Assembly (NCBI GenBank): GCA_034530615.2
Contig: JAVRCV020000015.1
Location: forward strand, 179,702-243,701
DNA from: Aulosira sp. ZfuVER01
GTDB taxonomy: Bacteria; Cyanobacteriota; Cyanobacteriia; Cyanobacteriales; Nostocaceae
Reading direction: 5' to 3'
Length of the DNA: 64,000 nucleotides
A model generated the notes under the pieces. It saw only the letters and a list, made by a program, of their open reading frames with translations. It was not told the DNA's origin and searched no databases. Numbering within the stretch: position 1 is the stretch's first letter; every line of letters begins with the position of its first letter. This document shows positions 35,761 to 40,414 of the stretch, in pieces. The translations under genes and the position numbers were made by a program.

Positions 35761-35999
35761 TCAGATCCGTTAACGCTAAATTCTGATATCTCCGCTACGA
35801 CTATTGTCTCTATCTGTTCGCCTTCACTACATCAAAAGCCATTTACCTGCTAGCGGGAAACTGTTCTCAGGCTGGTAATTCTCAGATACTACTTCTGTAT
35901 TGGTATAAAAAATCCTATCTTAATTACTAGTAAATGACTATGAATGCCTAAATAACTTGGGGAATACTGAAATTTAGTGCTTATCAAGGTGTATGAAAA

Positions 36000-36467
36000 A
36001 TGGCAGATACTCAAGTCAGCGCAAAACTTTCCGCAGCAGATAGAGAAGCGGTGATGCAAGCTATTAGTACTATTCGGCAAAAGTTACCGTTTTTGATTGA
36101 TTTGTCTACTGAGGAACGTAAAGCTTTACCCAAGCTGGGGGATAAGAGTCGGGCGTTTGTCAGTAAGGCGTTGGAAATAGCTGCACAAAATCCTGATTTC
36201 TTACCGCGTTCTTTTGATGTGGATGAAATGCGCCGAGATATTGAATTATTTGAAGCTTTGTATCCGATTTTGTTGTCGTTGACACAATTGCAAGAACTGG
36301 TGGATGATACTTCTGTGGCTGTTGGCAGTGAAGCTTATGCGGCGGGGTTGTTGGTATATAACTATGCCAAAGCTAGTGGTAAAGGCGCTGGTTTAGATTC
36401 AATGGTTGATGATTTGGGGCGAAGATTTGCCCGGAAAGCGAAAAAAGTGCAACCACAAACCTCGTAA
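36000..36467 (+). CDS. Hypothetical alpha-helical protein (155 aa) with basic C-terminus
   Basis: Clean ORF with AAGGTG RBS-like sequence; amphipathic helices; tail GRRFARKAKK; no catalytic motif recognised. Confidence 0.88.
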   Translation: MADTQVSAKLSAADREAVMQAISTIRQKLPFLIDLSTEERKALPKLGDKSRAFVSKALEIAAQNPDFLPRSFDVDEMRRDIELFEALYPILLSLTQLQELVDDTSVAVGSEAYAAGLLVYNYAKASGKGAGLDSMVDDLGRRFARKAKKVQPQTS

Positions 36468-36472
36468 TTTGA

Positions 36473-36706
36473 GAAATTAACTCGACGCTTTTAGATAAAA
36501 ACATAAATTTTGAGCTTCTGAGCTTGGGTGTTTCAGTTTTAAGTGAAAAACTCCGAGTCAGAAGCTTAAATTTTGCAGTTGTAAGTGAGAATGTTTTGGT
36601 TTGAAGTGAGAAGGTTTTCGTTTCAAACGAGAACATTTTTGTTTTTAGTAAGAACGTTCTGGTTTGAAATCACAATAGTTTCGTTTTAAGTTAAAAGCTT
36701 TTCGTT
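36473..36706. repeat. Degenerate 21-bp tandem array (11 units), consensus GTT-NNN-ARY-NNN-AAN-NTT-NNN
   Basis: Units start at 36473, 36494, ... 36683 with no indels; triplet 3 is ARY in 11/11, triplet 5 starts AA in 9/11, triplet 6 is NTT in 9/11, triplet 1 is GTT in 7/11. Confidence 0.85.
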
Positions 36707-36780
36707 TAATTGACTACCGTAAAGGTTTGACAAGAGAACACCGAGAATAATAGCGGTTATTACGGAGCTAATGAGCGAAT

Positions 36781-36813
36781 AGAACCCCGAATTTTTAGAG
36801 AAGTTGGGGTTCT
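36781..36813. repeat. REP-like palindrome
   Basis: AGAACCCCGAATT...AAGTTGGGGTTCT. Confidence 0.7.
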
Positions 36814-36925
36814 GAATCCTTATAAGTTTTTAAAAACAGAGAACTAAATCTTTTTGAATCCGAAATGTGTAAGGCTCACTGAGTAGTTATCTTATATGTA
36901 TTAGAGCTTACACCTGAATCTTTTC

Positions 36926-39900
36926 ATGAATCCTCAGAATAAGCCCAAGAGTTTACAGGATATTCTCAAACAACGTCAGCAATCAAGCTTTGTAGGTCGA
37001 GAGGAACAAGTTAATCTATTTCGCCAAAATCTAGAATTACCTTTAGACGACTCTCGCCGACACTTTTTATTTAATGTTTGGGGTCAAGGAGGAGTAGGTA
37101 AAAGTACACTGCTGCGTCAGTTTAGCCAAATTGCGTCTGGAGCGAAAATGATCGCGGCTCTTACTGATGAAGGTGAAAAAACTGTACCAGAAGTCATGGG
37201 TCGTCTGGCGGAACAGTTGGAACAGCAAGGTCATAAGCTGGCACAGTTTACAGAACGCTACAAAGTTTATCGTCAGAAGCGCCAGGAATTAGAAACCGAT
37301 CCCGAAGCACCGCAAGGTTTCTCGGCTTTTGTGGGCAAAACTGTAGCGAAAGCCGGAATGGGTATGGCTAAACAAGTTCCGGGTGCTGGTGCTGTATTTG
37401 GCTTAATCAATGAAGATGCTATTACTACCCAAGCCGGAGAATGGGCGGCTTATGTTGCGAAAAAATTAACCAATAAAGACGAAATTCTCTTAGTCCAAGA
37501 ACCTGTAGAAGTCCTGACTCCCTTATTTTTAGAAGATATTTCTAAAATTGCCCAAAAGTCTGGTCTTGGGTTGTTCTTTGATACTTATGAACGCAGCGCC
37601 GAATTTCTAGATAACTGGCTCAGGGAAATTATAGATGGTCGCCACGGTGAAGTACCTCTCAATATATTGATAATTATTGCCGGTCGGCAAGAATTAGATA
37701 AAAACCATTGGGCAATTTATGAGGGGTTAATAGTTCGTTTCCCTTTAGAACCATTTACAGAAGCAGAAGCCCAACAATATCTCACCCGTAAGGGAATTAC
37801 TAACAGTCGGGTGATTGAAGTAATTTTACGTCTTTCTGGAAATTTACCTTTGTTAGTTGCCACATTGGCGGCGGAAACTCCAAGTGACCCCAGTCAAGTA
37901 GGCGATCCTAGCGGTACAGCAGTAGAACGCTTCTTAAAATGGATTGATGACTCCAAGCGGCGACAATTAGCTGTAGATGCTGCACTTCCCTTGTCTTTAA
38001 ATCGGGATGTTTTGGCTAAATTGCGCGGAGAGGAAGACGCGGATGGTTTATTTAGCTGGCTGAAAGAAATGCCATTTATTGACGAACGCACTGATGGTTG
38101 GGCTTATCATGATGTCGTCAAAACGCAAATGCTACGCCACAAGCGGCTTTTGTCACCGCAAAGTTGGGCTGATTTGCATGGTAAGTTAGCCGACTACTAC
38201 GACAACTTGCGAAATAATTTACGCCTGGAAGAAGACAAAAAACAGCGCGATCCTGTTTGGCAAAGTTACACCCTCAATGTTTTGTATCACGGTTTATGTC
38301 AGTCACCACAGAGAAGCTTACCTGCTGCTTTAAATGAATTTCTCGCAGCACTGAAAAATCAATATTCTTTTGCTAAACGCTGGGCAGAAAGAATGATACA
38401 AGCAGGTAAAGATACAGATGTAGCTGAAATTCAGCGTTGGGGTGACAAGTTAGCCAATGGCTTAAAAGCTTATAACGAGAAACAGTATGAAGTTGCGGCT
38501 GAAATGTTCACAGCCTTGTTGAACAATACCTTTATTGAAGTCAAGTGGCGTGCAGTAGCTTTAGACTGGCGTGGTGAGGTTTACACCCAATCAAATCAAT
38601 ACTCTAAAGCTTTAGAAGATTTAACGGAAGCTATCAAGTTAGCTCCAGATGACGCTGAGTATTTATCAGATCGAGGTAAAACTTATCGCTTAATGGAGCG
38701 TTATGAGGAATCACTGCAAGATTATAACCGTGCTATTGAACTCAATCCTAAATACAACCGAGCGATAGCCAATCGCGGTCAAACTTACAAAGCAATGGAG
38801 CGTTATGAGGAATCACTGCAAGATTATAACCGTGCCATTGAACTTAACCCCAAATATGATTGGGCGATCGCCAATCGCGGTGAAACTTACCGCTTAATGA
38901 AGCAATATCAGGAAGCACTGCTGGATTTCGAGCGCGCTATTGAAATTAATCCCAAATCTGATTGGGTGATCGCACTTCGTGGTTAAACTTACCGCTTAAT
39001 GGAGCGATATCAGGAAGCACTGCTGGATTTCGAGCGCGCTATTGAAATTAATCCCAAATCTGATTGGGTGATCGCACTTCGTGGTTAAACTTACCGCTTA
39101 ATGGAGCGATATCAGGAAGCACTGCTGGATTTCGAGCGCGCTATTGAAATTAATCCCAAATCTGATTGGGCGATCGGACTTCGAGGTGAAACTTACCGCT
39201 TAATGCAGCAATATCAGGAAGCACTGCTGGATTTTGACCGTGCGATTGAACTTAATCCCAAATCTGATTGGGCGATCGCCAGTCGCGGTCAAACTTACAG
39301 AGCAATGAAGCGATATCCCGAAGCACTGCTGGATTTTGACCGAGCCATTGAACTTAATCCTAAATCCGATCGGGCGATCGCCAATCGAGGTGAAACTTAC
39401 CGCTTAATGAAGCAATATCAGGAAGCACTGCTGGATTTTGACCGTGCGATTGAACTTAATCCTAAATCCGATCGGGCGATCGCCAATCGAGGTGAAACTT
39501 ACCGCTTAATGAAGCAATATCAGGAAGCACTGCTGGATTTTGACCGTGCGATTGAACTTAATCCCAAATACGATTGGGCGATCGCACTTCGAGGTGAAAC
39601 TTACCGCTTAATGCAGCGATATCAGGAAGCACTGGTTGATTTCGACCGCGCTATTGAACTTGACCCCAACTATGATTGGGCGATCGCCAGTCGTGGTCAA
39701 ACTTACAGAGCAATGGAACGATATCAAGAAGCACTAGTTGATTTCGACTATGCAATTGAACTTAATCCCAAACTTGATTGGGCGATCGCACAACGCGGGC
39801 GAACTTACAGCGCAATGGCGCGATATGAAGAAGCACTGCTGGATTTTGACCGTGCTATTGAACTTGACCCCAAATATGATTGGGTGATCGCACAACGCGG

Positions 39901-40414
39901 TCAAACTTATGATTTGATGCAACTTTATACAGAAGCACTCCAGGATTTTGATCGCGCAATTGAACTTAATCCTAAATATGATTGGGCAATTTATAGAAGA
40001 GGTGAAATTTATTTGCTGTTGAAAGACTACAAGCAAGCTCTTGCAAATTTCAATCGTGCTATAGAGTTAGAACCTAATGATACTTGGTATTTTTATGATC
40101 GAGCTTTAGCTTACCAAGCTCTCCAGCAAGAACAAAAAGCAAAAGATGACTTTAATATTGCTATACAACTGGCTCAAGAAAAATATCAAAAAAATTCTCA
40201 AGACTGGCGCAATACTTTTAATCTGGCTCTTTACTATTTGACTTCTGGAGATATTGAACAATCTGAAAGTATTTATAAATATATTTTGTCAATGAGGCTT
40301 CCTGCTGATATTATTCGTGAGGCTATCCGTGATATAGATATTTTTCTAACTATTTTTCCAAATTACGAGTCAGCTATATCTATGCGTCAGTTATTACAAT
40401 CTTCCTTGACATGA
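36926..40414 (+). pseudogene. STAND/AAA-type ATPase plus about 16 TPRs (NLR-like), interrupted by two in-frame TAA codons (38984-38986, 39086-39088)
   Basis: FVGRE, Walker A GQGGVGKST, Walker B-like FFDTYE, IAGR, GNLPL; ORFs 36926-38986 and 39101-40414 share a frame; TAA replaces GAA/CAA in two near-identical 102-bp repeats. Confidence 0.85.
38660..40000 (+). repeat. 102-bp tandem TPR-coding repeats with very high nucleotide identity
   Basis: Recurring aaacttaccgcttaatg...caggaagcactgctggattt...attgaacttaatcccaaa at a 102-bp period. Confidence 0.92.

Follow-up and report, generated by a model that had tools for sequence, protein, structure and literature searches.

Behind a small hypothetical gene in the cyanobacterium Aulosira sp. 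ZfuVER01 lies an exactly phased array of degenerate 21-bp units, and the locus raises the question of whether gene and array belong together and, if so, whether the array acts as DNA, as RNA or as a remnant of coding sequence. Both lie in the window, the whole stretch of 64,000 nucleotides of contig JAVRCV020000015.1 that was analysed. A preliminary description of this stretch had proposed a protein-plus-array system in which the protein polymerises on or wraps the array, or binds a repetitive RNA made from it. Calothrix, Tolypothrix, and Nostoc are the closest named relatives.

The gene, the adjoining array and the encoded protein

The 155-aa open reading frame (ORF) was present in the ORF list at 36000-36467 on the plus strand, and eleven contiguous 21-bp units begin at 36473, five bases past its stop codon, just as had been claimed; together with the 4-base start of a twelfth unit, they form a non-coding lattice that extends over 36473-36707. 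The triplet counts given for these units (ARY in 11/11, AAN in 9/11, and NTT in 9/11) were correct on recount. The identity of the array with itself at lag 21 is 0.54, compared with 0.29 ± 0.03 in 2000 shuffles (maximum 0.39), and at lag 7 it is just 0.33 (shuffle mean 0.29). TRF detects the array only at 36583-36668, with a period of 21, and the layout is one of fixed first units, a variable middle, and a conserved last unit. The best reverse-complement register places dyad centres at unit positions 5 and 15.5, in agreement with the preliminary description. Its further point, that a dyad recurs every 10.5 bp, held in that the dyads are present, but it amounts to one observation and not two, because a period of 21 with one dyad automatically puts a second dyad 10.5 bp away, and the spacing adds nothing of its own to the evidence. 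Helical phasing is independently supported by the period that is fixed across phyla and by the phase of AA/TT steps, both given below.

Upstream of the gene, a motif conserved in sequence, TTGGG(G)AA(T/C)ACTG, was located at 35957-35969 on the plus strand, ~30-45 nt 5' of the start codon. It was found in 5 of the 16 upstream regions compared (L001, L002, L014, L021, and L030), all of them cyanobacterial. A scan for sigma-70 promoters gave no match at this motif, and a promoter and terminator scan of the locus was at chance level; the motif is a possible promoter element. Among the four window ORFs scanned with Pfam, the immediate neighbours of the gene and array are a Uma2 nuclease-family gene and an AAA-TPR gene. 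The AAA-TPR gene (36926-40414), which lies downstream, is interrupted by a pair of in-frame TGA codons (38984-38986 and 39086-39088); they fall at equivalent positions in two successive 102-bp TPR repeats, a position occupied by Glu in other repeats. A separate, REP-like palindromic repeat 3' of the array (36780-36819) has similar copies on 10 other contigs of this genome according to blastn and probably lies outside the module. An 87-aa ORF on the minus strand (36373-36636), open over units 1-8 of the array, was rejected as a gene as it is not kept in relatives.

Compared with 11 orthologues, the gene has dN/dS values of 0.02-0.12, which indicate purifying selection. A search for homologues returned 2677 representative proteins at 50% identity (E ≤ 0.001), hereafter family A. 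The protein matched nothing in the family libraries Pfam, NCBIfam, PADLOC, and PHROGs, and 119 family members lacked any Pfam or NCBIfam transposase match. The sequences of solved structures provided no match of note, the Atlas provided no named cluster, and neither viral contigs nor 50,697 phage records contained a relative at the sensitivities used. Some database entries carry the label "methyl-accepting chemotaxis protein", which was set aside as it has no domain support.

The helices of the 155-aa protein span residues 12-28, 37-42, 48-63, 74-125, and 133-140 and are followed by a basic C-terminal tail, and the AlphaFold2 model (pLDDT 92.6) is an extended all-helical chain with a 52-residue helix and no beta-strand. 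Foldseek gave no match at E ≤ 0.001 for this model. The best VIA-align hit (Z 6.2, rmsd 4.0, 65 aligned residues) represents generic helical hairpins, from which novelty of the fold does not follow. Coat proteins of the SIRV2/AFV1/SFV1 type were not among the fold-search matches listed, and no known DNA-binding fold was matched. The protein has no recognisable catalytic motif and is not basic overall (21 Lys and Arg versus 22 Asp and Glu), and the conserved basic residues are R40, K45, K49, K124, R142, and R145. A four-copy complex model scored 0.75, whereas the best of three controls scored 0.00; 20 of 30 solved homodimers attain this mark, as against 1 of 23 single chains, a calibration that is rough here given the custom alignment and the four copies. 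The complex runs agree in at least 70% of contacts with pLDDT values of at least 73, and the best contacts between copies cross a two-fold axis. The protein is thus predicted to be an intertwined homo-oligomer, and the modelled two-fold contact geometry would suit a palindromic site.

Linkage, register and grammar of the arrays across genomes

Homologous loci were collected from this genome and 40 relatives, from the GTDB (the best 80 of 84 matches), from 300 genomes sampled in the phylum to which one Verrucomicrobiia genome belongs, from a plasmid, and from metagenomes (the best 80 of 431 matches). When the count was confined to non-identical loci whose gene is near-full and which continue for 400 nt or more downstream, an array, defined by periodicity at lag 21 or 42, was present downstream of the gene in 143 of 159 cases, compared with 3/141 in the upstream control; after clustering of the proteins, the proportion was ~50/62. 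Of the 16 loci lacking a downstream array, two (L099 and L128) have an array upstream. The preliminary description had put forward a search for 21-bp periodicity downstream of homologues across phyla, and such periodicity was found in Cyanobacteria, Acidobacteriota, and Verrucomicrobiota, the named hosts of family A, as well as in metagenomes. The link between gene and array is therefore real and general. At the protein level, the Atlas adds family A clusters dominated by Bacteroidota and Pseudomonadota.

For 139 of 145 loci, the best lag fell on a multiple of 21. The other six consisted of lags of 43, 64, 83, and 85, none divisible by 3 and equivalent to 10.4-10.75 bp per turn, and of two unrelated neighbouring repeats. 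Arrays contain 9-16 units (10th-90th percentile) and begin at a median of 53 nt past the stop codon, with distances that range from a few to several hundred nt; nine Nostocaceae loci have ~100-370 nt inserted between the stop codon and the array. The neighbouring ORFs across loci (292 ORFs in 175 clusters) include no constant neighbour. In a relative, a second copy of the 3' end of the gene with its array lies ~3 kb downstream of the intact copy (G013:C1:8670235-8673953), and two metagenomic loci (L149 and L158) have a separate 71/72-bp tandem repeat 3' of the 21-bp array.

The family A gene is patchily distributed, being found in 62 of 151 genomes of the host's own taxonomic family and in 7/301 genomes of the other phylum sample. 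One type of family A array was detected in 44 of the 62 gene-bearing genomes and in 5 of the 89 genomes in which the gene was not found, a count in which four candidates were scored per genome and which includes related genomes and gene-linked arrays; one of the five array-bearing genomes without a detected gene is 79% complete. A single match was obtained in 72,556 plasmids, and no clear array is present there.

The sequences of the arrays differ between loci, and a self-complementary grammar is common to 47 non-redundant arrays: pyrimidines at positions 2-4, purines at 6-8, AA at 13-14, and TY at 17-18. The information in this grammar is 5.57, compared with 2.44 ± 0.09 in column-permuted profiles (maximum 2.73 of 200), and the best dyad falls at centres 5 and 15.5 in 34/47 arrays. 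In the mean profile, 54% of the power of AA/TT steps lies in the 10.5-bp harmonic, and 23 of the 47 single arrays have their AA/TT peak there, versus 17% of column-permuted controls. The purine/pyrimidine signal of the cross-phylum profile is dominated by a 7-nt sub-period (58% of power).

In 36 orthologous Nostocaceae loci, 486 units contain just 2 inserted and 5 deleted bases, a register nearly free of indels and in line with the earlier statement that it is exact. In these arrays the first five units and the last are position-specific, and the middle grows and shrinks; units 3-5 diverge by 0.03-0.25, compared with 0.14-0.50 at synonymous sites. Any given reading frame is open in at most 16 of the 47 diverse arrays and in at most 2 of 35 orthologous arrays (in the latter comparison, indel-bearing units were left out and one array-less locus was dropped), and at least one of the six frames is open in 32/47 arrays. 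The arrays are non-coding, because no single frame is kept open and some of the periods (43, 64, 83, and 85) are not divisible by 3, in line with what had been argued for the window array from its stop codons. The preliminary description had also named dN/dS<1 in one reading frame in relatives as the mark of a decayed coiled-coil gene; no frame is kept open there, and its reading was not refuted.

Gene-less arrays and two further protein families

A scan of the genome returned 102 tracts of period 21 or 42, of which 73 were kept by eye as non-coding-looking and 29 were dropped; 73 is a lower bound, as one of the dropped tracts later proved to be a true array. Of these at least 73 arrays, four lie behind family A genes, one of which is broken, and 13/73 are within 900 nt of a contig end. 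A partner gene was assigned to 12/73 arrays, and the remaining 61 have no detected partner. By lag, the genome has 74 tandem tracts at 21 and 73 at 42; in the range from 15 to 45, lags not divisible by 3 have 4 tracts or fewer each, and smaller peaks were observed at lags 15, 30, and 45 (27, 26, and 23 tracts). One paralogue of the gene (G000:C22:150-611, L003) has an internal TAA and retains a homogeneous array, and of another (C79:85588-85857, L005) only a fragment is left, flanked upstream by an array that belongs to a different type.

Common 12-mers connect seven gene-less arrays with the window array, directly or via one another. Three window-type gene-less arrays (G000:C37:21808, C77:138, and C4:99789) begin at, or a short way past, the stop codon of a long TPR-like gene, and two of these begin alike, as though the gene end had been copied with them. 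Five gene-less sites were compared with the orthologous sites of five congeners, of which 4/5, 2/5, 0/5, 4/5, and 0/5 were filled, so that presence is polymorphic at 5/5 sites among the six congeners including this genome; the 2/5 site carries a different array family, and at one 4/5 site the flank of the fifth congener is truncated. The site with different families (G000:C16:86893, L222-L226) is occupied by one 21-bp array family here and by another in two congeners; two further congeners have heptamer repeats alone there, and one has an unrelated gene. At these five sites, the flanks of filled and empty alleles are hypervariable heptamer tracts with no clear duplication or terminal inverted repeats by eye. 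The copy number of one array family ranges from 0 to 22 matches among 15 congeners. The gene-less arrays either move or, at the least, are quickly acquired and lost.

Searches that started from two other array types uncovered two further families of uncharacterised small helical proteins, in which the array lies upstream. Family B is represented by 14 matches in this genome, at G000:C79:161027-161446 and in 13 further places (L312-L321), encoding helical proteins of 120-145 aa without a Pfam family. An upstream array with a period of 21, 42, 63, 62, or 20/21 was present in 11/14, and a downstream array in none. Family C (124-128 aa, helical) has an upstream 21-bp array in 2/2 cases (G000:C8:143452-143820 and C34:2462-2830, L322 and L323) and at least 661 homologues; roughly a dozen gene-less arrays in the genome resemble its arrays in type. 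By profile comparison, B and C share a C-terminal part (E 5.9e-5), and A shows no detectable relation to either (E 0.11 for B and 0.23 for C). The family B model is laid out like that of A, with a short helix, a 54-residue helix, a short helix, and a basic tail; its fold search returned generic helical hairpins only, and again novelty of the fold does not follow. The original proposal of one protein with one array thus held as regards the link and needed revision in its scope, as most arrays are gene-less and polymorphic between congeners and those of families B and C are upstream.

A proposed DNA lattice, its rivals and known systems

We favour, with a probability of roughly 0.55, an explanation in which the array serves as a lattice of double-stranded DNA that carries one symmetric dimer of the protein on each helical turn, within a dispersed element. 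The 155-aa protein would be the cognate binder of the array, with a two-fold symmetric, intertwined dimer seated on each dyad, one per turn, and hence all on one face of the DNA. Neighbouring dimers may assemble into a short nucleoprotein tract, in which ~20-30 dimers would coat or bend a stretch of 200-350 bp. Selection would then hold the pitch and the loose palindromic grammar while the letters drift. The placement of a dimer on each dyad is suggested by the fixed pitch, the strand neutrality, the free position and orientation of the arrays, and the two-fold model of the protein. Gene plus array may be the complete form of the element and the gene-less arrays its copies in variable intergenic sites, usually just past a stop codon, onto which protein made in trans could load as well. 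Local chromosome organisation, a roadblock, or selfish spread are conceivable cellular roles, and we infer that the protein may take part in spreading the arrays. The period, the non-coding nature, the linkage, the grammar, and the polymorphic gene-less copies are direct observations, whereas self-association is modelled.

The flexible position of the arrays (inserts of 100-370 nt; upstream location in L099, L128, and families B and C) counts in favour of the DNA lattice, as do the linkage, the fixed period, the shared grammar, the AA/TT phase, the conserved basic residues, and the co-occurrence of gene and array type (44 of 62 genomes versus 5 of 89). Against it count the 7-nt purine sub-period, which one dimer per turn does not explain; the nearly invariable 3' position of family A arrays, as expected of a co-transcribed RNA; a G-U-tolerant sense-strand hairpin in Nostocaceae; the 16/159 loci without an array downstream; the five genomes with arrays in which the gene was not found; and the neutral charge of the protein together with the lack of a match to a known DNA-binding fold. 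As the protein has no recognisable catalytic motif, the reading also leaves the spread of gene-less arrays unexplained. A bolder and distinctly more tentative version would make this a new class of element defined by geometry, in which a lattice with a pitch of two turns is paired with a polymerising, non-catalytic dimer from at least three families (A, B, and C). Its coat would fix the 21-bp period and, with host recombination, seed gene-less lattices, giving dozens of nucleosome-like loading sites that vary between strains.

The array may instead act as RNA, either as a structured 3' extension or as a processed non-coding RNA whose duplexes are coated by the protein or regulate it; we consider this unlikely. 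The downstream position in 143/159 loci would fit such a role, and the sense RNA of the window array folds at z -6.5 relative to dinucleotide shuffles, a value that was rejected as evidence of RNA structure because column-permuted arrays fold equally well (z 0.1 for the window array against its own permuted copies). Five of the 47 arrays were left out for shortness or uniformity; among the other 42, sense out-folds antisense in 26 and the z-score for unit order is below -2 in three, so that antisense folds as well as sense. In the best hairpins, G-T oppositions outnumber A-C oppositions by 161 to 114 (20 arrays versus 12). In favour of RNA stands a leader hairpin of ~20 bp formed by units 2-5 on the sense strand (36509-36570), supported by folding and pair changes and conserved in Nostocaceae orthologues. 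It has 11 consensus pairs in 32 sequences, with 40 one-sided changes that preserve pairing by tolerating G-U, 2 compensatory changes, and 13 broken pairs, and matching length variants occur in both arms; the sequences compared are related, and three loci were left out as their anchor failed or was wrong. One contig from the RNA-seq library of a relative spans gene and array, from which neither strand nor transcription can be read, DNA being a possible source. Gene-less arrays of one family occur in both orientations with respect to the adjoining gene end (3 the same, 4 opposite), arrays are upstream in families B and C and in two family A loci, and an Rfam scan returned chance miRNA matches only, with no family above chance. 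An A-form duplex has ~11 bp per turn and would favour a period of 22, whereas 21 is observed. The type III-like RNA option raised in the preliminary description receives little support: neither a strand bias in folding nor a hairpin specific to unit order was found across arrays, though the Nostocaceae sense-strand hairpin stands in its favour.

A selfish or mutational class of repeats, spread by host slippage and recombination, with a gene that accompanies or generates the arrays and no lasting complex that matters to the cell, seems to us rather improbable. At least 61 of the 73 arrays have no detected partner gene, presence varies between congeners at all five sites (one with different array families), the copy number of one family varies from 0 to 22, the 7-nt purine sub-period is accommodated, and the arrays lie amid heptamer repeats past stop codons, a position reported for such repeats (PMC4692102). 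Left unexplained are the occurrence of one period and one dyad grammar in unrelated arrays from several phyla beside one protein family, the nearly indel-free register, first units more conserved than synonymous sites, and a dN/dS near 0.1 for the gene. That the array is decayed or read-through coding sequence for a heptad-repeat coiled coil has been largely refuted and is very improbable: 21 nt do equal seven codons, a minus-strand ORF covers units 1-8, and some frame is open in 32/47 arrays, but any one frame is open in so few diverse (16/47) or orthologous (2/35) arrays, the distance from stop codon to array is so variable, and periods of 43, 64, 83, 85, and 62 and mixtures of 20/21 break the frame.

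In full-text searches of a library with few subscription journals, none of the titles or abstract openings returned described such an element. A real and widespread protein-plus-lattice element is apparently undescribed, and its mechanism, in which binding is an inferred step, is probable. New here are the at least 73 arrays in this genome, mostly gene-less, and families B and C with their upstream arrays. Should the protein read the lattice, bacteria would possess a widespread protein-DNA assembly in which recognition relies on helical phase and a loosely palindromic grammar in place of a fixed sequence. A large unnamed family and at least two others would be involved, and a genome of a heterocyst-forming cyanobacterium would have dozens of sites. 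A common class of hypothetical genes would thereby gain a function, and a conspicuous class of 21-bp repeats (the 74 lag-21 tracts here) would be accounted for.

The preliminary description had set the array apart from CRISPR, heptamer STRR, and REP, and the comparison with the defining features of each supports this. In its proposed action the element comes nearest to a centromere or iteron array with its dimeric binder or to the DNA-wrapping dimers of SIRV2 and SFV1, and its spread resembles that of REPINs or MITEs, at sites shared with heptamer repeats. In contrast to a CRISPR, the array consists of contiguous 21-mers in which fixed and variable positions are interleaved without spacers, no CRISPR family was returned by the Rfam scan, and the neighbours among the four ORFs in the Pfam scan are Uma2 nuclease-family and AAA-TPR genes with no cas gene. 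In type III toxin-antitoxin systems (ToxIN, CptIN, TenpIN), the array is upstream, has longer units, and folds into an RNA pseudoknot specific to one strand. The present system likewise pairs a single small protein gene with a short array of repeats, but here the array is mostly downstream (143/159) and strand-neutral and the protein matches no such family.

RAYTs are HUH (Y1) transposases associated with REP, from which family A differs in its all-helical model and in having no transposase match (Pfam and NCBIfam, 119 members). The present system resembles REP/REPIN with RAYT and cyanobacterial MITEs such as Nezha (PMC3184786) in having few gene-linked and many gene-less intergenic copies and, like MITEs and REPINs, filled and empty orthologous sites among relatives, at 5/5 sites here. 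It differs from MITEs in being a tandem lattice of variable length; comparison of five sites by eye, amid hypervariable heptamer tracts, showed neither a clear target duplication nor terminal inverted repeats. The heptamer repeats (STRR) of Nostoc are G-rich, intergenic, near stop codons, and variable in copy number (PMC4692102), and the arrays share with them the intergenic location near stops, the variable copy number, and the same hot spots. Unlike STRR, the arrays have a degenerate, self-complementary 21-bp unit (lag-7 identity 0.33 versus lag-21 identity 0.54) and are tied to specific protein families.

The coat proteins of SIRV2, AFV1, and SFV1 are described as (pseudo-)symmetric helical dimers with a long helix that wrap DNA, hold it at 10.8-11.3 bp per turn, and coat whole genomes (PMC6105669). 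A helical dimer with a long helix may serve as a working model for family A, with the differences that the pitch is ~10.5, the target is a short lattice, and a viral context was not detected. Type Ib plasmid centromeres and iterons consist of phased repeats, direct or inverted, that are coated by a small dimer encoded next to them, as in parH/ParG and parS/omega. The present system differs from type Ib centromeres in having no beta-strand in its model for a ribbon-helix-helix fold and in its one match in 72,556 plasmids and many gene-less chromosomal copies, and from both centromeres and iterons in having no ParA ATPase or Rep gene as a constant partner among its neighbours. With both it shares a small protein, dimer-forming in our models, beside a helically phased array, and by analogy cooperative coating of that array is likely.
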